Positions 1-59,683 of a DNA stretch of 59,683 bases are shown here, one piece after another. The stretch spans positions 1 through 59,683 of the IMG/VR virus record IMGVR_UViG_3300046806_000084; one strand, written 5' to 3'. The stretch comes from a virus (lineage: Duplodnaviria > Caudoviricetes). The notes under the pieces were generated by a model that worked only from the letters and a program-made list of their open reading frames with translations, made no database searches and was not told the DNA's origin. Positions within the stretch are counted from its first letter, which is position 1, and each line of letters opens with the position of its first letter. Position numbers and translations under genes: made by a program.

Positions 1-127
1 TTACGATTAGAGGGAGGCGATGTGTTAGCATTCAATCCAAACTACAAGGGAGAGAAGTATAAATTTAACGATGAGTTTTTCATCAACTTAAAAGTATAGT
101 ATTATGAGACTAATTAACATTAACACA
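1..127. repeat. Terminal direct repeat, left copy (circular assembly overlap)
   Basis: 1-127 is identical to 59557-59683; 127 is a common assembler k-mer size. Confidence 0.97.
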
Positions 128-328: not shown

Positions 329-332
329 GATT

Positions 333-590
333 ATGAGAGCAAAGCAAGTTAATGACTACATAGTCAACACATTAGAACAAGAGCCAAGACATAATTGTGG
401 CGCGTTGGCGAAGGCTATAACAAAGGCAAGTAAGAAGTTTAAACAGGATCAGTTTGACATGATGCATCTACTATTAGAAAACAAAGCGATAGGAGGTTAC
501 ACGCATAGTTATGGGTTTCATACCGCATACGGCAGAGAACTTATAGATACGATGAGTAACTATTACTATGAGTTTAGTGTCGTTTATTAG
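333..590 (+). CDS. Hypothetical protein
   Basis: 85-aa ORF starting 4 nt after the previous stop. Confidence 0.8.
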   Translation: MRAKQVNDYIVNTLEQEPRHNCGALAKAITKASKKFKQDQFDMMHLLLENKAIGGYTHSYGFHTAYGRELIDTMSNYYYEFSVVY

Positions 591-594
591 TAGT

Positions 595-768
595 TTGTGT
601 CGACGTTGTGTCGATATTTTTTAAGAACGACACAGGTTAAATTATTAATTATCAATAAGTTAGGGTAAAAAATGTCGCTATGTCGATATTTTTCCTTTTA
701 TTTTGCGAAAAAAAAATAAGAATTATATTAAAATATATATAAGAGTATAGAGAACTAAAAATTGACAT
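595..768. repeat. TGTCG-rich, AT-rich origin-like element A (inverted partner of 56729-56930)
   Basis: Non-coding, several TGTCG/CGACA motifs, AT tract; 673-686 and 734-749 are exact reverse complements of 56820-56833 and 56756-56771. Confidence 0.65.
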
Positions 769-769
769 T

Positions 770-988
770 ATGACATTAGCAGAGGCAAAAGATTTTTTAA
801 GAAACGAGGGTTACTTTGTAGATAACCTTTGGCATGTTAGCGACGTTCAAAACAATTTTGAATGCGATGAAGAGACGGCTCAGAATATTTTATACTGGAC
901 TTTAACAAGTCCAACTACTATCGAGTACATAAACGATAGCATTGATATAGTAGCACGAAACGAAAACTTAAACACAAAATGCGAGTAA
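770..988 (+). CDS. Hypothetical protein
   Basis: 72-aa ATG ORF. Confidence 0.8.
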   Translation: MTLAEAKDFLRNEGYFVDNLWHVSDVQNNFECDEETAQNILYWTLTSPTTIEYINDSIDIVARNENLNTKCE

Positions 989-1212
989 AAAACGGAAGGT
1001 GGGTAGATAGTAACGATAACACTATCAACACGACAGAGCTAAACGGACAGGAGTTCGTAACGTTCAGAGAAAAGTTTATTGGATTGTATGGTGGTAATGT
1101 AACGCACAGCAGGATAGATATACTTCATCACGTTATGTGTATGAATGAATCTGAGGAGAGAGCCCTGTCGGGTGTATTAAATAACGGACTATTAAAAAGA
1201 TTTAGGTTATGA
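979..1212 (+). CDS. Hypothetical protein
   Basis: 77-aa ORF overlapping its neighbours. Confidence 0.75.
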   Translation: MRVKNGRWVDSNDNTINTTELNGQEFVTFREKFIGLYGGNVTHSRIDILHHVMCMNESEERALSGVLNNGLLKRFRL

Positions 1213-1403
1213 GAAGACGCATAACAAAGGGCAAGGTTAACATTAGCCTTGCTATAGAGGAGATATCTACAAGGCAGAAAAAATATACGGAGTACATACT
1301 TCACACGATGAGTGTGACTTCTACAGACTACAACACAGCGAAGGAATTAGTTAGGAGTGAGTTAAACTTCAAGGTCATGACACGATCCCTTCAGATGATT
1401 TAA
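1209..1403 (+). CDS. Hypothetical protein
   Basis: 64-aa ORF, ATGA overlap with upstream gene. Confidence 0.7.
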   Translation: MRRRITKGKVNISLAIEEISTRQKKYTEYILHTMSVTSTDYNTAKELVRSELNFKVMTRSLQMI

Positions 1404-1405
1404 AA

Positions 1406-1522
1406 GCGTGCCAGTGAATAGAATCCTTCCTAGCATGGAATGTAGGCCGTCTGAATGCGTGAGTCAAAGAGAGGACTGGTACGTGATATATTCATAATGC
1501 TCTCAAATTCAGATATTGCACT
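1406..1522 (+). ncRNA. Candidate structured (multi-pseudoknot) ncRNA
   Basis: GC-richer intergenic segment; 10-bp helix 1406-1415/1475-1484 crossed by 1449-1456/1507-1514; followed by a terminator. Confidence 0.5.
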
Positions 1523-1523
1523 G

Positions 1524-1558
1524 AGGGTTGCCGTTTTATACGGCATCCTTCTTTTATT
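1524..1558 (+). terminator. Rho-independent terminator
   Basis: AGGGTTGCCGT-TTTAT-ACGGCATCCTT hairpin followed by CTTTTATT. Confidence 0.75.
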
Positions 1559-1579
1559 AACTAATTTAAAAACAAAATT

Positions 1580-5913: not shown

Positions 5914-6131
5914 CACACACAGAAAAATACAACCAGTACGTGCAGGAGTGGATAAAAGAAAACCCTGCATTCTCTGGTTCTTATGAGCCTATGTTGGATT
6001 TTGATCAGTGGATTGATAATTATGTGATTGAGTTTGCGGAGTGGTGTTTAAAAAACGGATTGTTCACACAATTTAAAATAACACAAAGGGCAAACAAAGA
6101 ATTATTAGAAATATTTAAAAAAGAATTATGA
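5910..6131 (+). CDS. Hypothetical protein
   Basis: 73-aa ORF with ATGA overlaps. Confidence 0.75.
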   Translation: MTHTEKYNQYVQEWIKENPAFSGSYEPMLDFDQWIDNYVIEFAEWCLKNGLFTQFKITQRANKELLEIFKKEL

Positions 6132-6754
6132 AATTAAATTCAAACATTCCATCCTTCAAGGCGATGGTTAAGAAGTCTTACTTCACAAAGAACGAAGAGG
6201 ACAGCAAGGAGTACTACAACGTGTACGTGTTCGGTATTCAATCTTGCGCAGGACAGATACTTACGTTCCACGTAATGACAGACAACGGCATGCTTAGGAG
6301 CAGGGTTCCCTTGTCTGAGATATACACGAAGAAGCCAAACTTAGATATTCCATTTAACTTCAAGCAGTTATGGGACTGCTTCAGCGAGAACGTGTCCGTT
6401 ATTGAGTACGACTTCTTAGGATACCACAGGGCTCAGATTGTAATGAGAGACGGGACAAAGGTATGGGCGACCTACATGTTCACTGTTGACTGGTACGACA
6501 ACCCGTACAGCGATGAGCCATCTGACTATAAGTGTGGGCACATATTTGAATCGGACGAGGGCTACCTACTTTGCCAGCCGAACAACAGGATATTCTGGAG
6601 GGACTCAAACTGGGTAACCAAGGAGTTACCAGAGGACTTGAAGCAGTTCAAGGTTGACAGCGAATCAATATCCGTAGAGAACCAGTCAGACAGATGGGTA
6701 ACAGAGGACGGAGATAGTTTTTACTATGACATAAAAATTAAGGAGCATGAATAA
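6128..6754 (+). CDS. Hypothetical phage protein
   Basis: 208-aa ORF with QLWDCFS, YMFTVDW and QPNNRI motifs; function unknown. Confidence 0.85.
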   Translation: MKLNSNIPSFKAMVKKSYFTKNEEDSKEYYNVYVFGIQSCAGQILTFHVMTDNGMLRSRVPLSEIYTKKPNLDIPFNFKQLWDCFSENVSVIEYDFLGYHRAQIVMRDGTKVWATYMFTVDWYDNPYSDEPSDYKCGHIFESDEGYLLCQPNNRIFWRDSNWVTKELPEDLKQFKVDSESISVENQSDRWVTEDGDSFYYDIKIKEHE

Positions 6755-7009: not shown

Positions 7010-7954
7010 ATGGAAGGCAAAAAAAATCTAGTAGTAACTTGTTCTGGAGGAGAAACCTCTATGACTGTAACGCTTTATTGTTTAAAATATTTAAAAGAAG
7101 AATATGATATACTAGTTGTTTTCGCTAATACTGGTGTTGAAGATAATAAAACTTTAGATTTTTTAAATAAATGTCAGGATCATTTTAAAATACCTATCAA
7201 ATGGATTGAAGCTAAAGTACATCATGGAAAAAGAAAATCTTGTGGATATTTTGAGGTTGATTACAAAACAGCAACAAGGAATAAAGACTGGAGACACAGT
7301 GATAACACTCCTTTTGAAGAGGTTATAAAAAAATATGGATTACCAAATCACTCTCGTCTTCATTGTACAAGAGAATTGAAAATGAATCCTATTAAAGCTT
7401 TCGCAAAAGATTATTTTAAAGGTGAAAAATATACTTTAGCGTTAGGAATTAGAGTCGATGAAATAGATAGAATTAATCCAAATAGAAAAAAGTTAGGTAT
7501 TATTTATCCTTTGGCGCAGCCAGAATATAAACCAATGACAAAAAAGCAAGTAAACTTCTTTTGGGAAACTCAACCTTTTAGATTAGAATTAAAGGGTTAT
7601 GAAGGTAATTGTATAACTTGCTATAAAAAATCTAATAAAAAATTATACAAGTTAGCTCAAGAAAATCCAGAAGCATTTGAATTTTTTGATAAAATGGAGA
7701 AAAAATACGGAAACGTAAATGGTAAAATACCTGAAGTAATTTATGAAGAAATTATTGAAGAAGGATCTTTGTTTCCTTCTCTAAAAAGAAAACTAGAGGT
7801 TTTACCAAAGGATCTGTATAAAAATACTATATTTAGAAATTTCAAAACGGCTAAAGATATATTAATTGAATCTAAAGATTTCGATGTAGATATTTTAAAT
7901 GACAATGAAGAAACTGAAAGTTGTGAAATATTCTCAAATTGTGGAGAACAATAA
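7010..7954 (+). CDS. PAPS-reductase-family (PP-loop) protein, possible DNA modification enzyme
   Basis: SGGETS PP-loop, FANTGVE, CTRELK, GIRVDE, YPL, GNCITCYKK, C-terminal Cys pair. Confidence 0.8.
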   Translation: MEGKKNLVVTCSGGETSMTVTLYCLKYLKEEYDILVVFANTGVEDNKTLDFLNKCQDHFKIPIKWIEAKVHHGKRKSCGYFEVDYKTATRNKDWRHSDNTPFEEVIKKYGLPNHSRLHCTRELKMNPIKAFAKDYFKGEKYTLALGIRVDEIDRINPNRKKLGIIYPLAQPEYKPMTKKQVNFFWETQPFRLELKGYEGNCITCYKKSNKKLYKLAQENPEAFEFFDKMEKKYGNVNGKIPEVIYEEIIEEGSLFPSLKRKLEVLPKDLYKNTIFRNFKTAKDILIESKDFDVDILNDNEETESCEIFSNCGEQ

Positions 7955-17207: not shown

Positions 17208-17361
17208 AGATCTTCTTAAGGTGTTAGATGCTCTTCCAGAGACCGATGATACCAAACCTTTATTAGGCTGGATTACTATTAATGGTAATCTTTTTGAGGT
17301 TGACTTCAACGATCCAGATGACGAGGTATTAAAATTTTATAGAGAAAACAAAGGAGGCTAA
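17200..17361 (+). CDS. Hypothetical protein, last gene of + arm
   Basis: 53 aa; stop overlaps the convergent 17358 stop. Confidence 0.6.
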   Translation: MHEDLLKVLDALPETDDTKPLLGWITINGNLFEVDFNDPDDEVLKFYRENKGG

Positions 17362-20300
17362 TTGCCTCCTTTTTCTCTTGCTTTTCTTTTTATTTCGTCT
17401 AAGTTCTTTATTCCTCTAGACTTTATACTCTCCCTAAGAACCTCTATTTTCTTCATAGCTTCTTCCTGAGTTAAAGGAGTTTTATCTTCAATATCTTGAA
17501 ACTCTCCAGATTCAATCTGATACACAGCACTCTTACTATAACCAGCATCATCAGCTGATTGAGAAAGAACTAAAGGATCAGCTCCAAAGTATACAGCAGA
17601 ATCGAAATCTTTTTTATTTTCTTCTAGTATACCTCTAATACTTTCGTTAGATGTATTGTAAGCTTCTTTTAATTCTTCCTTTGTAATTTCCTTCTTTTCA
17701 AACTTTCTAAAGGCCTTGTTGTATATCTGTTTAGCCTTTAGTGTTTCCTCAAAGTTCTTTTTAGAATTAAAGTAATACTGCTTCTGGGTATCAACCTCTA
17801 TAACCTTGTATCCAAAAATTTGTCCAAGAGCATCATTTAATTTGTTTTCTGATTCAGATATCTTCTTTATACTGGTCAGAGTCCCTGGCTCAAATGTCTT
17901 CCAAGTTCTAGCCATTATTTTATTTATCTTATCTACTGGCTTATCGTAATCGTTGTATATTTCTCTTCCAAAGGCGTCCTTATTGTTTTTTATTTCTGAA
18001 ACTAAAGAGAACAATATATCCTCACTTAAATAAGGAGATGTAAATTCTTTTATAGACTCCGCAAGTCCGTCAACAAAATTATCTTCAGAACTAAATGCAT
18101 TTAAAGCTTTTGGTACCTGAGCTCTAGGGTCAGATGCGCTGAAGTCAATAAAAGAAAACTTACCTTCACCCATGTCTGTTATAACTATGTTAGAATTTTT
18201 AGACCATGGAGCTAAGAATCTCTTAGCCTTCTTATCTCTGCTTTCTTCATCATCCTCATCATCTAAACCATTTGCCGCTAAATAATACATTAATCCATAC
18301 TTTAATCCTTGAACAAGAGTTAATGCAAAAAATCTTTTAGCTCCTATTGCCTTTATTTTAGGGTTATCTGATTTCATCTCAGTAAACGCAAGAGCCACAG
18401 TATTGTATGAAGTTCTAAGTGATTCTAAAGAGAATGATATAAACGTACCAGCTACAGGTATAACCTTAAGCATTTTAGCTGAGTTAGGAATCCTTGAGTA
18501 GTTTGGAAGCGTGTTCTTAACTATTTCCTTAACATAATCAACAACATCCTTCTTCTCGTCTTGGTTTAAACTTTTAAAGTCTTTACCATAAAAAGCTTCT
18601 GAGTATTTTCTTTTTTCTGTTTCGTAAGCTACAATCTTAAAGAAATCATCCTCAGCTTGGTAAGCATTTTCAAGACCTTCCTTTACTCCTATTGTTTTAG
18701 CTTTTAAATACCTACCAAGTCTAGAGATTTTACTCTCACCTGGTCTGTTCATTCTTCTTTCAAAAGTCTTATCAAAGTCACCATCCTTAAACATGGACTT
18801 AATTTCATTTAATCCAACGTTTTGATTTATTATACCAGCATCAATGTATTCAAGTAATTTTTCTTGAAGGTCTTTTTTCCCTTTATTAAAAAGGTCGTTT
18901 CTTATTACAGAAAAAGACTTTCCATACTCATTGAAGTTAATATATCCATTAGATAACATAAAGTCAAGGTTACCAAAAATATTCTTACCGTGAGTAGCAA
19001 CAGAACCAATAGTCTTTAACCATTTTACAGATCTAAGCGCCTTCATGTAGTATTCGTAACCCTTGAATTGGTTTACAGCGTTTGCTAAAGACTTTACTTT
19101 TGAGCTTTTATTAAACTCGTCAGCTATTTCTTTAGTTGTCATTAGTCCTCCAAGAGGATCAAATGTTTTAGTAGAATCAGCAGCAATCTTTGTATTAAAC
19201 TCTTTAGGTTTATTCACATCTCCTTCTTCAAAGAATATGGTACCCATACCGTTCTTTTTAAGGTCATTTAAAAACTTGGTATTATAGGCAAGGTTAGCCA
19301 TCTTGTAAACAGTATTCGCATAGTTTTGAATTGGATCTGTGTACTCTCCCATTAAGGCTCTTATCTCTAATGGTATATCCATCTTTTGTTTTAGTATAGA
19401 CAAGTCTTTAGAACCTTCTTTTCCTGAGTTTACAAAAGCATTTTCGACATCTCTATCAAGTATTTTACTTATCTGTTCATCTACCATCTTGTTAAGAACG
19501 TCCTCCTTAGTAAGCCCTTCTTTTTTTGCTGTATCTTCAGCTACTTTAGAGAACTCATTTCTAAAGAAATCTCTAGCCTTATCTACATTCTCTTGCTTAA
19601 CTTTTTTAGCCCAGTCTTTATTATCAAAAACCTCATAAGCTCTAGTCATGTAAGAGCCTATATTCTGTCTAATATTTTCAGCTGACTCAGCTGGCAAAGC
19701 TCCAAGATCTATAAGCATCTGAGATAAACCGTCTATTTGGTTTCTCATTATATCACCAACAGCTTTAAATTCTGAAGGCAAGACTTTTGACTTATCACCT
19801 CTTATATACAAATCAAAGTCAACCAATAAAGCCTCCTTATCACCTTGGTATTTAGAAAGTAGTTCGTCAAATCTTCTTGATGTATTAGATACTAATTTAG
19901 CTTGAACCTCTATCTTTGAAGCCTTGTCTTCAACCGCTAAGAATACAGACTTAGGCATGAACCCTCTAGCTGAAGCTAGTCTTCTTCTAATGTTACCTAA
20001 GAAGTTTTTAATCTTAGTGTTGGCATCCTTTAAAAATATACCATCCTCTTTCTGAGCTTTCTGTATTTCTTTTTTATTATAATCTAGTAAGCCTTTAGAA
20101 GCCTGCTCAGCAGTATACCCGTTATTTTGTAGGTACTGTGAAATAGCAGCGTCAGAGAAACCAGCCTGCTTAGCGGATTTTATCTTGTTAGATATAACGC
20201 TTGTTTGTTTTTTACCTGATGGTTCATTAAACGTACCAGACATTATAGATACTTGGCCTACAGCATAAGGTTTACCTGTACTAGTTGTAATTGTTTTTGA

Positions 20301-23300
20301 CCCGTTTTCTCTGTTTTTTAAAAGATGTAAAACAGGCTTGTTTCCATTAACTTGTACAATATGAAATGGATAACTAGGATGTGAATCTTTTTTCTTTTTT
20401 ACTTCTCCGTTTACTTCTATTATAGCATAAACATCTCCAACATTCAAACCTTTAGTTAGTTCTTCAGAAGCTACTCCAGCTATTAAATCTGCAAGTGACT
20501 CCGATGTTTTTGTTTTATCTTTACCTAATTTTTTAGTATTATCACCGCCTAAAAGATCTATTATTTTTTTAAAGTTTTCTTTAATACTTTTAGATTGTGA
20601 TAATCTACCAATTAAATCCTTTATTACATTACCCCTAGTTTCAAACGTACTAGTTGAAGGGTCAGAAAAATAGTTTTCAATATCAGTTTTTAATTGTTTA
20701 GATTCAGAGCTTAACTTAATAAACCCTTTACTTGACTCAGATATTTTTTTAGCTTTTTCTTTAATACCCTGCATTGCGTCAGCAGGTAATTTATCTCCTT
20801 TAGATAACTTGTTTTCTTTCTTGTATTTTTTTATTTGTTCATTGACACTAATATTAAATACTTCTTTTTTTACAGATTCAGATACAGCTTTTCTAAAATC
20901 AGACAAACTTACAAGGCCTTTATCTAGCATAGTTTCAAGTATAGATAAACTTGAATTAACACCAGAAACACTACTGATTAATTTAGAATCAGATCCTTTT
21001 GTAAGTACAAGGTATCCTTTTTTATTATCGTTATTTTCTAAAGATTTATTAATAGCTCCTACAAGAGTATTAGCTGTGCCTTCATTTCCAGAGGCCCATA
21101 CATCACCATACTTTGTAACGAAGAAGACTCCTCCTCCTCCTTCAAATATTTCCTTACCGTCTATACTTATGCTTCCAACAAGCATATCGTCTGGTGAAGT
21201 TATAGCAACACTGTTACCAGACATAAAGTCTGTATTTTCAGGCTCTGTAACTAGTCCTTTTTTTATTAATTCATCAAGCTTTTCTTGCTCAGTATATTTA
21301 ACATCAAAAGCTCCTACTTGTCTTCTTTTTAATAATGAAACTGGAGACTTAATCTTCTTACCTGTTTCTAATACCTTTACATCAGACTGAGTAACCTCCT
21401 GTCCAGTCGCTACCTTTTGTGATAGTGTATTAAAGAAATCAACTACCTCGTTATCTGTGAATGGTTTAAATCCAAACATCTTAGCCAGCGCATCCATCCA
21501 TCTTTTTATAAGACTCTGTGATTGCTTAGGTAATGTATCGTAGTTAGCTGCAAGGTAACCGAATAACTCTGCTGCCTTCTCTTCGTTCTTAATATTCTCG
21601 TCGTAAGATGCAACAAAGTTTTCTAAGTACTCCTTTAAGTCAGGGTTATTATCAAGCTGCTTACTAAGCGCATTAATCATTCTTTTTGTTATGTCAGCCG
21701 CCTTAACATCGGTACCAACCATATTTATAAGTACAGCATGAAACACCTCGTGAGCTACTGTTGTCTTTGTAGCAGCACGCTTGTTTATGTGTATCGTATT
21801 TGTGCTTGACATGTAAGTTCCTCCAGACTCTACGTCCTCATCACCTACAGCCTTTGTATACGAATCATAGCTATCATGAATAACAAACTTCACATTAGGA
21901 AGTATGTTAGCCAATGCAGCCTTAGCGTTCTCAACCGCCTTGTTTATATCCGTAGAGAATAGGTTTGATATCTCCTCAACCTCCTGCTCTATTGTTTTTT
22001 CTTTAGACACAATATCAGAAAGCACCCTGCTATCTGGCATATGGAAGAACTTAGGATCAAACTTACCCCACAACTCTGTACCATGCACAATTCCTTGACC
22101 ATCAACCATTTGGGATATTCCCATCTGCTCTGTTGCGACAAGAAGGTTCTGCATCTCAGCATCTGTAAGTGGTCTAGATATTTTTAAAATAGTCGTAGGC
22201 TCTATACTTATTTTTCCGTCAAAGTTACTCTCAACATCCTTAACAAGCTCCTCTGATATTTCAACATCATCTGGTAAGGCCTCCTTAATTTCTTCAATAG
22301 TAAGCATCTCTCCATCCTTTCCAATTTCCATACCTATGTTTAGGTAGTTACCCTCTGGAGCTCCTTCAACAGTAACAACCTCGGTCTTCATGTATGACCT
22401 TCTCTTACCTTGTCTTTGCTTATCTACTTTGTTGTACTCATCCTTTAAATCTTGAGGTAAGTCAGACTCGTTTACAAGCTTAGTTATTTCCTCTCTGCTT
22501 AAACTAGACGTGCTTAATTTATACAAAGCATCATAATTCTGCTGAGAGTTTCTGTACTTGTATATCTTGTCGTATATCTTTTGAAACTTAGAATCCTTAG
22601 ATTCAGGAACTATAGATACAAATCCTTTTTTAGTATTTGACTTATACTCCTCATCAAATGTTTTTGTAACCTGTTCTCCTTTAGATACTTGAGTATCTGT
22701 TGGCGTTAATTCTTTAGTTGTTTGAGCCCTTGTTTTTCCTCCCCAATCAGCGACAACCATGTCATAACCATTCTCTCCAGCTATCTTTGTGATATACGCC
22801 AGTTGAGAGTTAGCGTCAAAAGCCTTACCAGGATTCTCTGCCTCGTGTCTTTTTTCTGCTTCCTCTAAATAATTATTCTCGTCAGTATTGAAATCGTAAA
22901 CCTTATCAATAGGAACCTTTACAGCGTACTTGCCTGGCCCTTTAACCATTGTCTCTCCATCCTCTGGTCTAGTATAATACATAGCAACGCCTCCGACCTT
23001 ACCAATAGCGGCAGCCTCATCCCTAGATGTTCTAGTGCTTTGTCCACTTGACGGCTTTATTGTTTCGTATCCAGCATCACCAACGTGAAAGAACACAGCG
23101 TTTCCTTCTTCGTCCTGAGTAAGGTTAGCAAAGTTTGAAGACTTCTCAGGAGTTATCACACTCATCTGATTAACTGGTTCCGCAACCTTAACGTTAAACA
23201 CGTCAGGCATTTCCCCTGTTAATTTTTTAGGATCTAATTTATTGCTTGATATTAAATTAGAAAGTTCGCCATCGTGTATAAACGCAGCGAACTCTTCTGT

Positions 23301-23342
23301 GGTATATTTCTTACCATTATATAAAACACAAGGACCAGCCAT
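17358..23342 (-). CDS. Giant internal virion/ejection protein, polyvalent (ART-like, SAM-lyase-like, zincin)
   Basis: 1994 aa at the end of the structural operon; FH...YYT...YD...GYD ART-like motifs (aa ~82-200); NIGM...FDGK...EPT...EQ domain (aa ~333-433); HEVFH (aa 531). Confidence 0.75.
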   Translation of the reverse strand: MAGPCVLYNGKKYTTEEFAAFIHDGELSNLISSNKLDPKKLTGEMPDVFNVKVAEPVNQMSVITPEKSSNFANLTQDEEGNAVFFHVGDAGYETIKPSSGQSTRTSRDEAAAIGKVGGVAMYYTRPEDGETMVKGPGKYAVKVPIDKVYDFNTDENNYLEEAEKRHEAENPGKAFDANSQLAYITKIAGENGYDMVVADWGGKTRAQTTKELTPTDTQVSKGEQVTKTFDEEYKSNTKKGFVSIVPESKDSKFQKIYDKIYKYRNSQQNYDALYKLSTSSLSREEITKLVNESDLPQDLKDEYNKVDKQRQGKRRSYMKTEVVTVEGAPEGNYLNIGMEIGKDGEMLTIEEIKEALPDDVEISEELVKDVESNFDGKISIEPTTILKISRPLTDAEMQNLLVATEQMGISQMVDGQGIVHGTELWGKFDPKFFHMPDSRVLSDIVSKEKTIEQEVEEISNLFSTDINKAVENAKAALANILPNVKFVIHDSYDSYTKAVGDEDVESGGTYMSSTNTIHINKRAATKTTVAHEVFHAVLINMVGTDVKAADITKRMINALSKQLDNNPDLKEYLENFVASYDENIKNEEKAAELFGYLAANYDTLPKQSQSLIKRWMDALAKMFGFKPFTDNEVVDFFNTLSQKVATGQEVTQSDVKVLETGKKIKSPVSLLKRRQVGAFDVKYTEQEKLDELIKKGLVTEPENTDFMSGNSVAITSPDDMLVGSISIDGKEIFEGGGGVFFVTKYGDVWASGNEGTANTLVGAINKSLENNDNKKGYLVLTKGSDSKLISSVSGVNSSLSILETMLDKGLVSLSDFRKAVSESVKKEVFNISVNEQIKKYKKENKLSKGDKLPADAMQGIKEKAKKISESSKGFIKLSSESKQLKTDIENYFSDPSTSTFETRGNVIKDLIGRLSQSKSIKENFKKIIDLLGGDNTKKLGKDKTKTSESLADLIAGVASEELTKGLNVGDVYAIIEVNGEVKKKKDSHPSYPFHIVQVNGNKPVLHLLKNRENGSKTITTSTGKPYAVGQVSIMSGTFNEPSGKKQTSVISNKIKSAKQAGFSDAAISQYLQNNGYTAEQASKGLLDYNKKEIQKAQKEDGIFLKDANTKIKNFLGNIRRRLASARGFMPKSVFLAVEDKASKIEVQAKLVSNTSRRFDELLSKYQGDKEALLVDFDLYIRGDKSKVLPSEFKAVGDIMRNQIDGLSQMLIDLGALPAESAENIRQNIGSYMTRAYEVFDNKDWAKKVKQENVDKARDFFRNEFSKVAEDTAKKEGLTKEDVLNKMVDEQISKILDRDVENAFVNSGKEGSKDLSILKQKMDIPLEIRALMGEYTDPIQNYANTVYKMANLAYNTKFLNDLKKNGMGTIFFEEGDVNKPKEFNTKIAADSTKTFDPLGGLMTTKEIADEFNKSSKVKSLANAVNQFKGYEYYMKALRSVKWLKTIGSVATHGKNIFGNLDFMLSNGYINFNEYGKSFSVIRNDLFNKGKKDLQEKLLEYIDAGIINQNVGLNEIKSMFKDGDFDKTFERRMNRPGESKISRLGRYLKAKTIGVKEGLENAYQAEDDFFKIVAYETEKRKYSEAFYGKDFKSLNQDEKKDVVDYVKEIVKNTLPNYSRIPNSAKMLKVIPVAGTFISFSLESLRTSYNTVALAFTEMKSDNPKIKAIGAKRFFALTLVQGLKYGLMYYLAANGLDDEDDEESRDKKAKRFLAPWSKNSNIVITDMGEGKFSFIDFSASDPRAQVPKALNAFSSEDNFVDGLAESIKEFTSPYLSEDILFSLVSEIKNNKDAFGREIYNDYDKPVDKINKIMARTWKTFEPGTLTSIKKISESENKLNDALGQIFGYKVIEVDTQKQYYFNSKKNFEETLKAKQIYNKAFRKFEKKEITKEELKEAYNTSNESIRGILEENKKDFDSAVYFGADPLVLSQSADDAGYSKSAVYQIESGEFQDIEDKTPLTQEEAMKKIEVLRESIKSRGIKNLDEIKRKAREKGGN

Positions 23343-30092: not shown

Positions 30093-33000
30093 TTATATAC
30101 AATCTCCGTTTATACTTAGTATTGGTCCTCCAGATGTTGCACCAATAGCGCAAAATGTAAGTGTTGTGTCTACAAAAATTTCTTGAGGATCTCCAGCGCA
30201 ATCCGTGTAGTACACCATTCCTGGGAATCCATCAGCGCTAGCGGTCCATTCTAAGCAATCAATAGGAGGCACATCGCATTCGTCTCCATACTCAATTGTT
30301 AAAGCAGGAATTACAGAAGGTATAAGCAACTCAATACTTCCTGGTATTACACAAACTCCGTCTCCTAAGTTTACCTCGTAAGCCATTGGCATTTCAGGTG
30401 TTGCGTTAGCAGGTATAGGAACAAGTATTTCTTGACGTTCTTTATCACAATCTAAGTAACTAAATGAAGCGTCAAAATCTCCAGCCCCTTTAAACGTACC
30501 TCCAGACCAAGTTGTACATGCTTCACAATCTGGGCATGATACAGGGTCTAGTAATACACCAGATAATTGTTGTCTGTAAGTACCTCCTAACTGATACCAT
30601 CCATCGTCAGCAAGTGCTGTTAAATTAGAATCAGTGAACACAGCTGTAGCTCCTGAAAACGTACTAGAATTAATGTAGTAATCTAAAGGCTCTGTACAAT
30701 TACAGCACACATCGTATTCATCCACGTCGCTATAACAAAGAGAAACTCTATTAGATATCCTTAAATCCCATACCAAGTATAAGTAAACTCCAGTATAATC
30801 AAAGTCATTTATAACTGCCTGATACGTTCCTGTCGAAGGATTTGTTATAGGTGTTACATCATTAAGTAAAGGTATTAATGAAGGCACATCGTAAAGAGTA
30901 TTTGAAACTAAATACTTAAATGAATTTGAAGGATCAAAATCATAAGTATCTCCAGCTTCTTTAACAGAAACTAACGCTATATCACTACCTATTGCAGGTA
31001 TTGTTCCTTCTGAAGTAAGTCCGCTTACTAACTCGTAAAGAGAAACACCAGTAGAACTTAGGTTTATAAATTCAATGTCGTAAGGGCTTAAATCAGCTCC
31101 AAGAGACCATCTGTATTTTGTATGAGTTGTTAAACCTTGAGATGCTGGTGAATTAAGAACAACCTTAACCACAGTCAAAGGCTCAAGCTCTGGACATGGA
31201 GAAGATATTGTAAATGTAGCATTATTAGGTATTACAGTAATTCTTGCTAACTCTGGTTCAAATGATGTTTTATCAAACACAACCTCAGAATCTTCATCTA
31301 TTTTTTCGTTAAAAATAATAACATCATTATACTCAACAAGTAAATTCAAGTCACCATCCGTAACCTCTACATTGAATGTTACCTGTCCTATTGTTTTACC
31401 TAAATTTACATAGTAAGTACTCTCCTCACTGCTATTGTATTTTGAAACAACACTACCGCAAGGTACTTCATCATCAGGAACTGGTAATAACTCATCCTTC
31501 AAGGATAAAACGTACTCACTCATGTAAGGATCGTATCCACCTATTTTTAGATTATTTAATGAGTTTTTAAATTCATCTCTAAACCAGTGTTTCATACCTA
31601 AATCAGATATAAAAGCTAGCTGATCAGAGTTATAAGAACCTCCTCTTAAGTTTAATACAGCAGATCTCTTTACATCTGTAAAGAAAATCTCTGGGCCATA
31701 AACAGAAAAACTATCTGGATTGTTGCTTATTCCATTCTCCTCTATTCTTGATATCTGAGTACCTAAAACCTCTGGTATAGAAGTTATTGCTCCACCTCCA
31801 GCTGCGTCAGATAGTAAGTTTTTTCCTTGTAACACGTAAGAAATCTTGTCCTCCTGAAGAACAAGAAGGTCTGTTTTTCTTCCGTATAATATCTCTATAC
31901 TACCAAATACTTTTTCTAAGTCTCTGTAGTTAGCTAGAGCTAAGTTGTATTCATTTAACTTATTTATGTTCGTGTCTTGATTATATATACCGCTGTACGT
32001 TATTGAAGCGTATCTATGAGCTGACCTGTAGTCCTCCTGAGAAACAGCCGTAACTCTACTGCCTATATAAAAAGGAGCACCTACTAAAGAATCTCCAATC
32101 TTATAGCTCTCGCATCCATTTCCAAAAGAGAAGCAGTTAAAGAAGTCAAGATTAGAAACAGCTGAACCAAGAGCAGACGGTTGATTAGAAACGTTACCCT
32201 GATGTAATCCGTTTACAATATCAAATACCTGATCATTTTCATAAAATATTTCACCATTAGCTTCTGCAGGCTCTGTTTCAAAAATAAACGAAGAAGTAGC
32301 TTGCTGTATATTTATGTATCCATACAAATCGGAGCTCTTTCCACTACATTTAGGCGTTCCACTTCTTAAAACAAGGAAAAGCCTTCCGTCTTTTGGGTTT
32401 GCTGTGTTGTTACCAATATAACCCTCTGCGAATTGATATTGATTAACGCTGCTTATTATAGGTACAGATCCAGATGGTCTGTAATTAGTTATTACAGATG
32501 TCTGAACATTTGTATTAACTGTGTCGTCGTCTCCAGAACTAACCCCGTTGGTAAGGTCTATTTGTTGTCCCTGTATAAAGTCATAAAAGCTATTATAATC
32601 CTGATTTGATACAAAGTTTTTATCGTAATCATAAATCCTTGATCCACATCTATTTCCTGCACCATTTCTTTTAAATTGGATTCTTATTGTAATTAAAGAT
32701 CCAGCTGGAATAGGTATAGGCATGTATGGTTGATTGCCAGGATCTACAGGTAGCGTGCTATCGTATTCTGGATTATCCTGAAAAAAAGGCATTTGAGCTA
32801 TAGTATAAGAATCATAAAAACTTACAATTGGTATTGATATAAAAGAATTTTCAAGATAAGTAGCCTGAAAATTAGAAGCCTTTAATTTCATATAGGTACC
32901 TGCTGGCTCTAAAGCACCTCCACTTATAAAACCACTAGACTTAGCCTCTATATCTAAAACCTTTGTTGTTACCAAACTATTTAAAACTCCAGAAGAGTCT

Positions 33001-34988
33001 TTTTTTACTATAAGTCTTTGATCGTTTCTTACCTTACTTCTGTTGTCTCCATCTAGTTTAAACCAAGTATAACCATCGTTATCTACGAAGAATATATTAC
33101 AAAAAATAGTTTCGTAATCTGCTTTTGAAGGCTTTAATACAAACTCGTATTTTTTAGCCCAAGACGGAGCGATATTATTTACCTTTACCTGCAAGAAGTT
33201 TCTAGAGTCTGATGTAGATGCTGGAAAAAATACCGTGTTATTTGTTACGGTTAAAGCAGTGCTTCTTCTGCTGTAATCATCCATATAAACTATAGCTAGC
33301 TCATAATCCCTGTTACTATGTAAGCTTTTCTTGCTACCAGGATTTGTTATATAAGCCTCTGTAGAAACATTTTCAAAGTACTCATAAGCATAATTCATCA
33401 CTGTAGAAGGATATTCTACAAAGAACTCCATAGCTGGAACCTGAATACCTAATACATTTGATCCATTAGCTACTGATATTTCAAATCCTCCATCGTTATT
33501 AGATATACCACTACCTGTTTTAGTCCATGCTGGAACACCTGCTGATATTTGTTTAGTGACAAGAGAACAGTTAAATAAATCGGTAAAAGACAATCCTTCA
33601 GAGCAATTAGATATAGTTTGATGTGTGTATAAGGCATCTATAAAACTTTGGTCTGTACCTAAATCAAAAACACTTGTATAATCCCTAGGGAATGTGTAGT
33701 AGAATATCTCTTGAAATATATTTATTGGGGCTCCAGTAGGATATAAAGAACTTCCGCTAAACCTGTTATGTATTAAATTAAAGTCTATAGTCAATGTATA
33801 ACCTTCTTTTAATTCAGCGTTAGACAGGTCTATATTTATTTTAGAATTATCTATAGTGCTTACAAATGAAGGATCTATACTATAAGGAGCCCCGCTTGTT
33901 TCTGTTAAATTAAATCTATCAACACTTATAGGTTCGCTAAGTCCTTTTACATCATAATCTAAATTTACATCAATATCGTAACCGTCGACATAGTTACCGT
34001 AAAAAATTCTATTACCCATTGTTGTTTGGGCTTTAGATACTAATGGTACGTTGTCATAAAGTCTTAGTAGTTCGCTTTCTGGTAAAACAGTGTATATCTT
34101 TTTGTTATTAAATAATACCTCTTGAGTAGTATTACTAGCCCATCCTTGCTCTTCTTTATCGTACTTTTCTATAACATTCACGATGCTAGATGTTGAATAC
34201 TTAAAGCAAACATCAACGCCTACAACATTATCGTCACCAGTATCAAAAGAGACTCTAACTGTGTTAAGTAGATTCTCCATACCAGTGTTTTTGTATGTAG
34301 AGTAGTCAATATTAAATGGACCTGGTTCGAATGCTATATCTGTAAACTTAGATAGAGCACTGTATTCTCCGTCTAGGTATTTATACCTATAAGAGAAAGA
34401 AATAAATTTATCCGTTATATAGTTTTCCTCTCCAGCAACATTAAATAATTGAATGATAGGAGCTTCTGTTGGAGGCGCTACAATTACATTAATATCCTCC
34501 TCTGTTATTTGATCAGTAGGATTAGGAAAGGGATAAGCTCTTTTTACGTTTATCTTTCTAGGAGGGTTTAAGTTGTCCGTCCAAAACAATAAGTCGTCTA
34601 TTAAGTTTATTCCGTTTATTCTGTACTTCTTATCGAAATTTAAAACGCTAACTGACTTTACGTGGTACTTAAGTGTTTGTGTTCCAATATTGTAAGATAC
34701 AATCATGTCAGTGGCACCTGGATCAGCAATGAACCAGTATATAGTTTCATTTGCACCATCCTCAAGAGCGCCTATACATTCTGCGTTTCCTGTAAGACCA
34801 GGGATAAAGGTTAGTTGTGAGTTACCTAAAGCGTTTTCAATAGCACCCATACTGCTTAATTCAGTTGAGCCTATTCTTATGTTTAATGCATCAATATATT
34901 CCCCATCTGGTAAAAGTCTCTCATCGACAGACTTGTTCATTTTACCACCGATAAATGTTACGACTTCGTTTGTATTTGAACCTGCCAT
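30093..34988 (-). CDS. Tail nozzle/stabilisation protein
   Basis: 1631 aa, beta-rich, MNKSVDERLLPDGEYIDALN N-terminus, Cys-rich C-terminal domains. Confidence 0.7.
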   Translation of the reverse strand: MAGSNTNEVVTFIGGKMNKSVDERLLPDGEYIDALNIRIGSTELSSMGAIENALGNSQLTFIPGLTGNAECIGALEDGANETIYWFIADPGATDMIVSYNIGTQTLKYHVKSVSVLNFDKKYRINGINLIDDLLFWTDNLNPPRKINVKRAYPFPNPTDQITEEDINVIVAPPTEAPIIQLFNVAGEENYITDKFISFSYRYKYLDGEYSALSKFTDIAFEPGPFNIDYSTYKNTGMENLLNTVRVSFDTGDDNVVGVDVCFKYSTSSIVNVIEKYDKEEQGWASNTTQEVLFNNKKIYTVLPESELLRLYDNVPLVSKAQTTMGNRIFYGNYVDGYDIDVNLDYDVKGLSEPISVDRFNLTETSGAPYSIDPSFVSTIDNSKINIDLSNAELKEGYTLTIDFNLIHNRFSGSSLYPTGAPINIFQEIFYYTFPRDYTSVFDLGTDQSFIDALYTHQTISNCSEGLSFTDLFNCSLVTKQISAGVPAWTKTGSGISNNDGGFEISVANGSNVLGIQVPAMEFFVEYPSTVMNYAYEYFENVSTEAYITNPGSKKSLHSNRDYELAIVYMDDYSRRSTALTVTNNTVFFPASTSDSRNFLQVKVNNIAPSWAKKYEFVLKPSKADYETIFCNIFFVDNDGYTWFKLDGDNRSKVRNDQRLIVKKDSSGVLNSLVTTKVLDIEAKSSGFISGGALEPAGTYMKLKASNFQATYLENSFISIPIVSFYDSYTIAQMPFFQDNPEYDSTLPVDPGNQPYMPIPIPAGSLITIRIQFKRNGAGNRCGSRIYDYDKNFVSNQDYNSFYDFIQGQQIDLTNGVSSGDDDTVNTNVQTSVITNYRPSGSVPIISSVNQYQFAEGYIGNNTANPKDGRLFLVLRSGTPKCSGKSSDLYGYINIQQATSSFIFETEPAEANGEIFYENDQVFDIVNGLHQGNVSNQPSALGSAVSNLDFFNCFSFGNGCESYKIGDSLVGAPFYIGSRVTAVSQEDYRSAHRYASITYSGIYNQDTNINKLNEYNLALANYRDLEKVFGSIEILYGRKTDLLVLQEDKISYVLQGKNLLSDAAGGGAITSIPEVLGTQISRIEENGISNNPDSFSVYGPEIFFTDVKRSAVLNLRGGSYNSDQLAFISDLGMKHWFRDEFKNSLNNLKIGGYDPYMSEYVLSLKDELLPVPDDEVPCGSVVSKYNSSEESTYYVNLGKTIGQVTFNVEVTDGDLNLLVEYNDVIIFNEKIDEDSEVVFDKTSFEPELARITVIPNNATFTISSPCPELEPLTVVKVVLNSPASQGLTTHTKYRWSLGADLSPYDIEFINLSSTGVSLYELVSGLTSEGTIPAIGSDIALVSVKEAGDTYDFDPSNSFKYLVSNTLYDVPSLIPLLNDVTPITNPSTGTYQAVINDFDYTGVYLYLVWDLRISNRVSLCYSDVDEYDVCCNCTEPLDYYINSSTFSGATAVFTDSNLTALADDGWYQLGGTYRQQLSGVLLDPVSCPDCEACTTWSGGTFKGAGDFDASFSYLDCDKERQEILVPIPANATPEMPMAYEVNLGDGVCVIPGSIELLIPSVIPALTIEYGDECDVPPIDCLEWTASADGFPGMVYYTDCAGDPQEIFVDTTLTFCAIGATSGGPILSINGDCI

Positions 34989-43261: not shown

Positions 43262-43939
43262 TTATATTATGTGCTTCCAGGTTTTTAAATTTACAATGCT
43301 TAAAATATTTGATTTTGATATATTAAAAATAACCGCTAGTTTTCTTGAGGAATAATTTCCGCTATTGTGCATTTTTCTAATATTTAAAACATCTTCTTCG
43401 TTTAGCTTAGAAGTTATATTTTCAGAACCTCTTTTAGCTGATTTTATCATTTTATTAAGCGTTTCTTCAGATACTTTCTTTCCGTACATGTGATTTTTTT
43501 CACCAGATTGAGCTTTTGACATTTTTATTTTAGTTTCTTCGCTAGTAACCTTTCCTTTATGAAACTCAGAAACCTTTCTTCTTTGTTCTTTAGAAATAAC
43601 TTTTCCTCTGTTTGGTATACTCATCTTTATTTTTGCTTCATCAGAATGAATTAACCCCAAACAACCATCTCCTCCGTTAGTTAAATTACATAAACTACCT
43701 AATCCTAAATCGCTTCTTCCGTGTAATTTTATAAACTCAATTTCTTTTTCTTTTATAAAGTTATAGTCATCGTGTTCAAATAATATTTCAACATCATAAT
43801 CTGTTTTATTGACTATTTTATTCCAGTGATCGTTTCTGCTTTTTTTAGATTTAGACCTATAATAATTATTATCCACTCCTATTCCGATGTAGAAAGGAAT
43901 GTTTTTATCTAATCTTATATGTCTATACAAATATGCCAT
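43262..43939 (-). mobile_element. Free-standing GIY-YIG-type homing endonuclease with NUMOD3 repeats
   Basis: YLY...FYIGIG...R, NLTNGGDG, repeated SEETKIKMS/HMYGK, C-terminal HTH; AT-rich. Confidence 0.85.
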
Positions 43940-46204: not shown

Positions 46205-46442
46205 TCTTTGATGTAGATTTAGTTTCACCTGTTATCATTTCGCTCTCCTGCTCTATTCTAGCTAGTATTAGAAAAGCATCTTCCACTGCCAAACGCTTTG
46301 TAGCAGCAGCGTTCTTAAGCTTGTCAGCGGAAAGGTCGCCCTCCATACCTGTAATAATCTTATCCTCAGCCACCTTAATAAGCTCGTCAACAGCTTTATA
46401 TCCAGCTTCAATTATTCTCTGCTTAATATCGTTTGTTGTCAT
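46164..46442 (-). CDS. Putative terminase small subunit
   Basis: 92 aa, helical, overlaps the terL start. Confidence 0.55.
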   Translation of the reverse strand: MTTNDIKQRIIEAGYKAVDELIKVAEDKIITGMEGDLSADKLKNAAATKRLAVEDAFLILARIEQESEMITGETKSTSKNEDKGGFAERRSR

Positions 46443-47002
46443 AGCTTAATTTTTATATTACTGGTAAACATTCTGTACAGCTTCTGGTCATTAATCTTAA
46501 ACTCGTACTCGCTATCTGGCTCAAAAGCAACCTCATCACCTATAGATAAACCTAAGTCAATTAGCTCCTGGTTTATGTACTTTATCCTTCCGATAAGCGG
46601 CTCCTCAGTACCTGGCTTTACTAGGTAGTAATCCTTCGTTTCAACTGGCTCTATGAAGCAGTACTTGGAGTAGCACTTCCACTCATCACCATTAAAGAAC
46701 ATGAAGAACTGATCCTCCTCAACAAAGAACATGTCGTCCTTAAAGAAGTTATGACTGCTCTGCTGTCTACCTCTCATGTCGTAGTAGAACTTAAACACGT
46801 TATGGTGAACTAGAAGTAAGTCACCAACATTAATCTCCCCATCATATCCAACTGGTGTAGCAACAACCTCAGCAAACCTATTGGATGACATGTGGTCCTC
46901 CTGTGATGTGCTTGTTATGAAGTTGATGTTGCCTATTGATTTGATGTTATCATAACGCCTTCCTTTTAAAGGTTTTACGATAAATGAAAATGGTGACCTC
47001 AT
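46439..47002 (-). CDS. GroES/Cpn10-like protein (two modules)
   Basis: AEVVATP...INVGDLLLV and IGDEVAF...YE beta-barrel-like motifs. Confidence 0.55.
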   Translation of the reverse strand: MRSPFSFIVKPLKGRRYDNIKSIGNINFITSTSQEDHMSSNRFAEVVATPVGYDGEINVGDLLLVHHNVFKFYYDMRGRQQSSHNFFKDDMFFVEEDQFFMFFNGDEWKCYSKYCFIEPVETKDYYLVKPGTEEPLIGRIKYINQELIDLGLSIGDEVAFEPDSEYEFKINDQKLYRMFTSNIKIKL

Positions 47003-47226
47003 TCGAAGTTTATGTTGTACTCGATTGATATTGGCATGTTTGAATTGAATCCCTTCCACAGGTACTGCTCATTGTTTTTCTCAATGTATATACTTATGGA
47101 ATCATCCTGCTCAAGCCTGATATGACATATGTGATACGTCTTATCAAGAACAGGCTGTCCTATAAGGTAATGCATCGCATTGTTCTTGTAGTCAGCCCCA
47201 ACTGATATCTTCCTAATGTCCATCAT
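46999..47226 (-). CDS. Hypothetical protein
   Basis: 75-aa ORF. Confidence 0.75.
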   Translation of the reverse strand: MMDIRKISVGADYKNNAMHYLIGQPVLDKTYHICHIRLEQDDSISIYIEKNNEQYLWKGFNSNMPISIEYNINFE

Positions 47227-59316: not shown

Positions 59317-59655
59317 ATGAATACATTTCAAGTAAACATAGGCATGGGTAACAATACCCTAAGCACAGAGCAACTAGTAGACTTCTTTGCAGAGCATAAG
59401 AGGTTTAGATTAATAGCCTACACGTTTCAGTACGGGTGGTTTGAAGGCAAGCAAGAGGAAACATTTGTTGCCGTGTTTGAAAACTCTGTATCTGAGGGTA
59501 GCACGTTGGTAGAATTTGAATTGATATGCGACCTGCTAGAGCAAGAGAGCATAGCGTTACGATTAGAGGGAGGCGATGTGTTAGCATTCAATCCAAACTA
59601 CAAGGGAGAGAAGTATAAATTTAACGATGAGTTTTTCATCAACTTAAAAGTATAG
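59317..59655 (+). CDS. Putative SAM lyase (T3 SAMase-like)
   Basis: GWFEG..EET...LEQESI fits the remembered G-x-aromatic...E-x-T...Q-[ED]-[SC]-[IV] signature; early-region location. Confidence 0.6.
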   Translation: MNTFQVNIGMGNNTLSTEQLVDFFAEHKRFRLIAYTFQYGWFEGKQEETFVAVFENSVSEGSTLVEFELICDLLEQESIALRLEGGDVLAFNPNYKGEKYKFNDEFFINLKV

Positions 59656-59683
59656 TATTATGAGACTAATTAACATTAACACA
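59557..59683. repeat. Terminal direct repeat, right copy
   Basis: Identical to 1-127. Confidence 0.97.

Follow-up and report, generated by a model that had tools for sequence, protein, structure and literature searches.

A giant protein of a marine phage, 1994 amino acids (aa) in length, carries at aa 320–445 a domain which, in our judgement, is very probably homologous to the family of a small free protein encoded by the same genome, and which in structural models takes the fold of the phage S-adenosylmethionine (SAM) lyases. The genome is the IMG/VR virus record IMGVR_UViG_3300046806_000084, analysed over its whole stretch of 59,683 nucleotides (the window). A sequence-only reading of the window had aligned by eye aa 333–433 of the giant protein (22044–22346) with the product of an open reading frame (ORF) at 59317–59655, and had proposed a SAM-lyase-like domain, paralogous to an early gene and used in a two-stage anti-defence. 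The positions and lengths of both ORFs proved to be right, but the domain is larger than the stretch aligned by eye, which lies inside it. The three elements, called below the giant protein, the fused domain and the free protein, are the following:

17358–23342, minus strand: giant ORF of 1994 aa, of polyvalent type, last gene of the minus-strand structural block
22008–22385, minus strand: predicted SAM-lyase-fold (PII-like) domain, aa 320–445, from AlphaFold2 and hhalign
59317–59655, plus strand: free 112-aa protein, probable divergent member of the S-AdoMet lyase family, among small ORFs

The relationship emerges from families and not from the two sequences, since the direct pairwise comparison stayed at the level of chance and the family profiles were clearly homologous. 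Relatives of the giant protein were retrieved by a region search with aa 250–650, which gave 268 large proteins at E ≤ 0.001, of which 120 were listed and, together with the query, made up the 121 examined; the free-family set came from an exhaustive profile search starting from close relatives, and contained 234 proteins at E ≤ 0.001, nearly all of 95–180 aa. When an alignment of 102 relatives of the free protein (A3) was compared by hhalign with an alignment of 17 diverse copies of the fused domain (A2), the two matched with a probability of 96.8% and E = 2.6e-10 over 100 columns, with a score of 58.5, to be compared with 17.2 for the reversed A2 and with values not exceeding 17.0 for 20 column shuffles. 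The motif pairs picked out by eye are all present and collinear in the two proteins, and correspond to near-invariant columns of both families, namely N-x-G, E-x-T, Q-x-x-I and F-x-x-x-x-F; the local hhalign alignment shifts the first of these motifs by four residues, and the global alignment restores the pairing made by eye. Plain profiles crossed the two families as well. In a four-sequence test, the A2 profile matched free-type domains in two large proteins, P0232 (265–375) and P0249 (1003–1113), with independent E values of 3.8e-7 and 8.7e-6, and the A3 profile, used on ten related viral records of which five are distant, found the fused domain in the giant open frames of three of the five distant ones (E = 7.5e-7, 9.6e-6 and 9.7e-4). 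By plain hmmsearch the fused-domain profile gave 1–6 bits against free proteins, and hhalign, as long as the free family was represented by just six near-identical sequences, gave P = 0.042, or 0.004 to 0.0004 in another run; the match became significant only once the free family was enlarged. A recent duplication within the genome was considered and rejected, as each copy comes from a widespread family of its own and the two are less than 20% identical: they are ancient relatives.

The two large proteins mentioned above, P0232 (1856 aa; domain at aa 264–375) and P0249 (2644 aa; domain at aa 1002–1113), come from metagenomes; their SAM-lyase-like domain is of the free type and retains Q-E. Outside this domain they gave no match to the family of the giant protein (phmmer, E 1e-5), so that the fusion of a lyase-like domain to a large protein seems to have happened on more than one occasion. 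P0270, an EF-hand repeat protein of 679 aa that was also among the matches of the free-family profile, was set aside as probably spurious.

The AlphaFold2 model of the fused domain, built from the 17-sequence alignment, reached a predicted local distance difference test score (pLDDT) of 94.3 and a predicted template modelling score (pTM) of 0.88, and shows the order beta1-alpha1-beta2-beta3-alpha2-beta4-beta5; on this model, aa 320–445 form an autonomous PII-like alpha/beta domain. A SAM lyase, Svi3-3, was the best solved match, and by two methods. In Foldseek against the PDB, the top two matches were the Svi3-3 entries 6zm9 (E = 3.1e-3, template modelling (TM) score 0.44) and 6znb (E = 1.2e-2, TM 0.41), with ACT-type domains behind; in VIA-align against 48,161 representative chains, 6zm9_A ranked first and was the only chain with Z ≥ 8 (Z 8.2, root mean square deviation 3.7 Å, 95/129 residues), T3 SAMase ranked 8 (Z 5.4, 107 residues) and 9gab_D, the Clostridium botulinum lyase of SAM–adenosine monophosphate (SAM-AMP), ranked 32 (Z 4.8). 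Among the predicted viral structures of BFVD there were six matches at E < 0.001, every one a small free phage protein, the best being a 130-aa Ralstonia phage protein (TM 0.69). The fourth in rank, a 113-aa elemoA protein (E = 3.2e-4, TM 0.61/0.67), is probably the elemoA homologue of the free gene, a coding sequence of equal length (113 aa). We consider the structural evidence by itself moderate; joined to the profile homology, it assigns the fused domain to the branch of the PII-like superfamily that the SAM lyases form. Its link to the Pfam SAM lyase family is indirect because it passes through the free family. The ESM Atlas gave no usable match for the fused domain, and a complex prediction with three copies of the domain plus SAM, run without controls, scored 0.00, which says nothing on the trimer either way.

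The BFVD matches also comprise proteins of 123–130 aa (TM 0.55–0.69) from the Ralstonia phages phiAp1, RSB1 and RSB3, from an Achromobacter phage and from Curvibacter phage P26059B; to judge from the predicted structures, these uncharacterised proteins may be unannotated SAM-lyase-fold proteins.

The connection to known lyases was obtained mainly through the family of the free protein. Pfam PF23780 (S-AdoMet_lyase) was matched by 41 of its 102 aligned relatives (E ≤ 0.1, best 6.8e-7), and no other Pfam family matched more than 2 of them; in a smaller scan of 24 free-family proteins, 6 matched S-AdoMet_lyase, all under the 28-bit cut-off. T3 SAMase (7ock) was the sole match of the free-family profile among 177,635 PDB sequences, a weak one (E = 0.8), and in that alignment the invariant Glu-x-Thr of the family falls on T3 Glu68-Lys-Thr and its Gln-Glu-Cys on T3 Gln-Asp-Cys, to which E47-x-T49 and Q76-E77-S78 correspond in the free protein; hhalign of the free family with T3 SAMase gave P = 0.0029 over 88 columns. 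In the ESM Atlas, the free protein has viral clusters as its neighbours (score 0.92); PF23780 is present in 12–52% of their members, and DUF3293 (PF11697) in some. The free protein contains the full signature, i.e., G40-W-F42, E47-E-T49 and Q76-E77-S78, with Phe42 where most relatives have Tyr. In the family as a whole, the Gly is found in 73/102 sequences, the aromatic in 98/102, the Glu in 102/102, the Thr in 96/102, the Gln in 101/102 and the following Glu or Asp in 93/102. In the confident half of its model, the order of strands and helices is as in the fused domain. The protein is best read as a divergent member of the SAM lyase family with an intact site. Its signature motifs are encoded as follows:

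59455–59463, plus strand: E47-x-T49 of the free protein, signature motif
59542–59547, plus strand: Q76-E77 of the free protein, signature motif

In deposited phages, the relatives of the free ORF occur only in Flavobacterium Elemovirus phages (68 records) and in one Maribacter phage, with a best match of 39.8% identity (E = 7e-20); in those genomes the homologue is one of the small genes grouped upstream of those for Erf and the exonuclease. In the window, we infer from its position near the start of the plus-strand block that the free gene may be expressed early.

The residues that could form a site in the fused domain were then placed on those of the lyases; the equivalence to Svi3-3 Glu69 and Gln104 rests on sequence alignments.

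22200–22202, minus strand: Glu381 codon, by alignment the counterpart of Glu47 of the free protein, T3 Glu68 and Svi3-3 Glu69
22125–22127, minus strand: Gln406 codon, by alignment the counterpart of Gln76 of the free protein; it is followed by Met407, at a position that is Glu or Asp in lyases

Glu381 is kept in 52/53 copies of the fused domain and Gln406 in 53/53. It has been reported that Gly56, Glu69 and Gln104 of Svi3-3 are the sole strictly conserved residues among four active SAMases, that Tyr58 and Glu105 complete the site, that T3 Glu68 is the counterpart of Glu69, and that the E69Q mutation leaves the activity nearly gone (Guo et al., PMC7877911). The Glu and the Gln hold the amino-acid (methionine) end of the substrate in Svi3-3, T3 SAMase and SAM-AMP lyase (PMC7877911, PMC12255297), and no other site residue is structurally conserved between the SAM and the SAM-AMP lyases (Chi et al., PMC12255297). 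As the reaction is described as unimolecular and in need of few conserved residues (PMC7877911), a site made of Glu and Gln only could still work. The sequence-only reading was correct in noting Q-M instead of Q-[ED] in the fused copy, and position 407 is in fact variable over the 53 copies (M 18, Q 13, K 8, L 6, others). The fused family has invariant polar residues of its own, namely Arg390, Glu396-Met397 and Gln411, and an aromatic residue (Tyr, Phe or His) precedes its N-x-G strand.

The protein that carries the domain has the features of a polyvalent protein: it is very large, it has many domains and an HExxH peptidase, and its relatives bear other effectors. Polyvalent proteins have been argued to enter the cell with the DNA and to be cut into units by a zincin peptidase, the metallopeptidase (MPTase) being their hub domain (Iyer et al. 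2017, PMC5512222). Besides the fused domain, the following parts of the giant protein were recognised:

21393–22007, minus strand: zincin-like metallopeptidase region, aa 446–650, directly after the lyase-like domain
21738–21752, minus strand: H-E-x-x-H motif (HEVFH), aa 531–535, in the peptidase region
17820–19679, minus strand: C-terminal module, aa 1222–1841, common to virion structural proteins

The peptidase region is common to all 121 large proteins examined. Pfam peptidase models gave no match at cut-off on the giant protein of the window, and a weak SprT-like Pfam match was seen for this region in one relative, P0090. The relatives scanned with Pfam carry ART-PolyVal, LPD23 and DUF7178, with LPD38 just below cut-off (26.1 vs. 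27 bits). The C-terminal module matches PHROG 22602, 'virion structural protein' (E = 3.8e-31), and, by tblastn, Cellulophaga phage proteins that include gp123 of phi18:3 (E = 3e-31), annotated from tandem mass spectrometry (MS/MS) proteomics. This module and the position in the structural block suggest that the giant protein is packaged in the virion; its ejection with the DNA would be a further step beyond packaging.

The unit at aa 320–445 lies at a varying distance from the N terminus and always directly before the same HExxH region, in a slot whose content changes among relatives: 53 have the lyase-like domain, and the other 67 fall into five clusters. A single mixed alignment of all 67 of these other slot segments was discarded, as it blurred several unrelated domains, and the segments were re-clustered. 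In ten relatives (10/121 large proteins) the slot is occupied by DUF3293 (PF11697), 60–70 aa before the peptidase, and in P0088, one of the two such relatives scanned with Pfam, DUF3293 overlaps a S-AdoMet_lyase match of 28.2 bits, the cut-off being 28. The free family matched the DUF3293-type cluster with a probability of 39.5% (P = 3.1e-4), which is suggestive only, and the fused domain gave P = 0.0072 with the same cluster. The variable slot fits an interchangeable cargo position.

Other contents of the slot were also seen. A cluster of 23 relatives (including P0072, P0086, P0090, P0099, P0110 and P0120) has a different domain there, with no Pfam match in the two that were scanned, and further clusters comprise 24, 6 and 3 relatives with unnamed domains.

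Taken at its word, the sequence-only reading holds for the homology of the two copies and for their placement near the phage SAM lyases, by the Pfam, T3 SAMase and Svi3-3 matches, and its functional part can be put forward only conditionally. The giant polyvalent protein would be carried inside the virion and pass into the cell together with the DNA; there the HExxH peptidase next to the domain would release it, and the domain, once free, would assemble into a trimer and bind, probably cleaving it, SAM or a SAM-derived adenosyl compound. SAM-dependent defences (type I restriction-modification (R-M), BREX) or SAM-AMP signalling would in this way be blunted before phage gene expression, and the free copy would do the same job by expression. 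To this whole statement, a ligand-directed counter-defence role with catalysis, we give somewhat less than an even chance. In its most specific form, the family of aa 320–445 would be an always-fused subtype of the SAM lyase fold, carried by the virion and released by the peptidase, which destroys SAM or a SAM-AMP-like signal within seconds of ejection by means of the Glu/Gln pair together with Arg390, Glu396 and Gln411; this form we regard as possible, though doubtful.

Several results weigh against the counter-defence proposal or against parts of its basis. As for the sequences, BLASTP of the giant protein with the small ORF returned just two pieces of 6–7 residues, at chance level (E = 1.4 and 8.1), and Smith-Waterman comparison of the fused segment with the small protein gave z from -0.2 to +1.0 (1000 shuffles), with higher scores elsewhere in the giant protein than in the fused segment. 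The free protein itself has no match in Pfam (E ≤ 1), PHROGs or PDB sequences. S-AdoMet_lyase of Pfam was matched by 0/17 fused copies at E ≤ 1 (gathering score 28 bits), direct searches with the fused domain in Pfam, PHROGs and PDB sequences, including profile against PDB, found no lyase, and hhalign of the fused domain with T3 SAMase gave P = 0.4. As for the structures, Foldseek against the PDB gave the fused domain no match below E 0.001; an ACT domain came second in VIA-align (Z 7.4), close behind Svi3-3, and a Z near 8 in this method can mean a common arrangement, 8.2 being usual for a best match. The model of the free protein, from a shallow alignment, was poor (pLDDT 52.7) and was not used in fold searches. 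In the site, the loss is wider than the Q-M change noted by the sequence-only reading, as the G-x-Tyr element is missing too, the positions aligned to it being variable or deleted (F 10, V 10, I 7, gap 22 over the 53 copies), and the acid after the Gln (Svi3-3 E105) is absent from the fused domain. In Svi3-3, Y58F is reported to lower the activity 5-fold and to loosen the trimer, and E105Q to lower it 3-fold (PMC7877911). As for the carrier, the C-terminal module has about 24–27% identity with phi18:3 gp123, and the protein could lose its N-terminal part before it is packaged, a course argued for P1 DdrB (PMC5512222). Finally, the fused domain would have to trimerise inside a 1994-aa chain: SAM lyases, which convert SAM to MTA and homoserine lactone, are trimers with the active sites between subunits.

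The loss of the Tyr and of the acid makes a role in binding only, a change of substrate or a function as a sensor a serious rival. The fused domain could be catalytically dead and bind SAM, another cytoplasmic metabolite or the host SAM synthetase, acting as an inhibitor or telling the adjacent peptidase that the cytoplasm has been reached. Such a reading, which we hold to be rather unlikely, would account for the position of the domain, always immediately before the peptidase, and for the invariant R390, E396-M397 and Q411, which have no counterpart in the free family; the PII/ACT relatives are ligand sensors, ACT domains are the next-best structural matches, and T3 SAMase is reported also to inactivate MetK by forming heteropolymers (PMC8406200). 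The conservation of the Glu/Gln pair, enough for a unimolecular lyase mechanism, speaks against a dead domain, and the several unrelated domains found in the same slot fit interchangeable cargo better than a dedicated sensor. One or both copies could instead be lyases of SAM-AMP, the second messenger of type III-B CRISPR, and thus anti-CRISPR enzymes. The fold is shared, the Glu and Gln that alone are common to SAM-AMP and SAM lyases are exactly those that the fused domain has kept, and a phage SAM-AMP lyase with a fused extra domain is described as active on SAM-AMP and not on SAM (PMC12255297). 9gab_D is among the structural matches, the known phage relatives of the free gene infect Flavobacterium and Maribacter, and SAM-AMP signalling has been described in Bacteroides fragilis. 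We nevertheless find this improbable, Svi3-3 being clearly the better structural match (Z 8.2 vs. 4.8). That a widespread ferredoxin-like arrangement and motifs met by chance explain the resemblance, the domain being a structural spacer unrelated to SAM, seems to us highly improbable: the pairwise alignment at chance level, the Foldseek E values above 0.001 and the many ferredoxin-like folds at Z 5–7 would agree with it, but it is contradicted by the controlled profile-profile match, the plain-profile cross-matches, the invariant polar residues common to both families and the structural match to the elemoA free protein.

Compared with known systems, the fused domain shares with Svi3-3 (6zm9, 6znb; PMC7877911) the beta-alpha-beta-beta-alpha-beta-beta PII-like sandwich, and Glu69 and Gln104 of this enzyme have conserved counterparts in both proteins of the window, the free protein having also the G-x-aromatic element and Q-E. 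By contrast, Svi3-3 is a free trimeric enzyme of about 130–150 aa, and the fused domain lies inside a 1994-aa chain, is devoid of Gly56-x-Tyr58 and Glu105, has a short hairpin at the place of the T-loop and is about 13% identical over the aligned residues. T3 SAMase (gene 0.3; 7ock; PF23780), which is known to counter type I R-M and BREX, is an early gene product of a podophage, but it has 152 aa against the 112 aa of the free protein, and is made after entry instead of being carried by the virion. The SAM-AMP lyase of C. botulinum and the phage enzyme AcrIIIB4 (9gab; PMC12255297) belong to the same superfamily, conserve Glu and Gln and, in the case of AcrIIIB4, offer an example of fusion to another domain; the structural match is weaker, and AcrIIIB4 is a small two-domain protein and not part of a giant virion protein. 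The DUF3293 proteins occupy the identical slot before the peptidase, and DUF3293 and S-AdoMet_lyase both occur among the Atlas neighbours of the free protein, but their profile link to the free family and the fused domain is suggestive only. With the polyvalent proteins (P1 DdrB/DarB, N4 virion RNA polymerase), the giant protein has in common the very large size, the many domains, the late block and the zincin HExxH hub, and the logic proposed for them is that effectors made in advance arrive with the DNA and are set free by the peptidase (PMC5512222); different from them, the lyase-like domain of the window has no Pfam model. The main text of Iyer et al. 2017 names no SAMase, S-adenosylmethionine or DUF3293; the supplementary domain lists, outside that text, may include the region without a name. 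Our literature searches found no description of a SAM lyase domain that forms part of a virion protein or of a polyvalent one, in agreement with the remark of the sequence-only reading that no virion-delivered SAMase domain had been described; one paper containing both 'polyvalent protein' and 'SAM lyase' merely cites two works separately.

To our knowledge, the phage SAM lyases described so far come into play only once early genes have been expressed, and the incoming DNA is exposed in the first minutes to SAM-dependent restriction and BREX. If the proposed role is true, a domain of SAM-lyase type that arrives with the DNA would close this early gap, would add a metabolite-targeting activity to the virion-borne polyvalent repertoire, and would be the first packaged counter-defence enzyme that depletes a small molecule. 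The fused family would also be a natural experiment on minimal catalysis in the SAM lyase fold, with Glu and Gln kept and the Tyr and the acid gone; as it has no Pfam model, annotating it would label many unmarked regions in metagenomic giant proteins.

The fused domain was found in 53/121 of the large proteins examined, query included; it is common in metagenomic giant proteins and occurs in 21 viral contigs, and every source name for these large proteins is 'hypothetical protein'. A tblastn search with aa 295–481 against 50,697 deposited phage genomes gave no match (E ≤ 1), and no free-standing protein of the fused type (64–226 aa) was present among 1168 candidates. A free copy beside the fused one was seen in one of ten related viral records (G002, E = 5e-35, in a 115-aa open frame) and in one of the four that are at least 90% complete; the records with the fused domain are partly fragments, and a fragment may lack the free gene. 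Given this rarity, the pairing assumed in a two-stage anti-defence is lineage-specific and not a conserved design; the fused domain usually stands as the only copy.

As regards the genome setting, the window is a complete closed circular assembly with 59,556 unique bases, since its ends are identical, and such a terminal repeat of 127 bases indicates a circular genome, as is typical of these assemblies:

59557–59683: terminal overlap of 127 bases, equal to window 1–127 (blastn, 100%)

In the closed circle the free gene leads on to the genes of the window start, and its locus extends into window 330–1576. The plus strand carries small ORFs and then the genes of a Sak-like annealing protein, an exonuclease, a primase/helicase, a helicase and a deoxynucleoside monophosphate (dNMP) kinase; the minus strand carries those of the terminase, portal, virion proteins, tail fibre and endolysin, together with GroEL and GroES. 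The GroEL-like chaperonin is at 54082–55689 (minus strand; PHROG 5725, E = 5.8e-136), and the match to the co-chaperonin GroES family at 46439–47059 (minus strand; PHROG 13932, E = 1.8e-19). The replication block includes an auxiliary gene pair, at 6128–6754 (plus strand; PHROG 'ferredoxin', E = 5.9e-40) and at 7010–7954 (plus strand; PHROG 'phosphoadenosine phosphosulfate reductase', E = 4.4e-48). A homing-endonuclease-like gene at 43262–43939 (minus strand; PHROG 314, E = 1.6e-25) lies between the portal and large terminase genes, and another giant virion protein, of 1631 aa, is encoded at 30093–34988 (minus strand; PHROG 14478, E = 1.8e-246).

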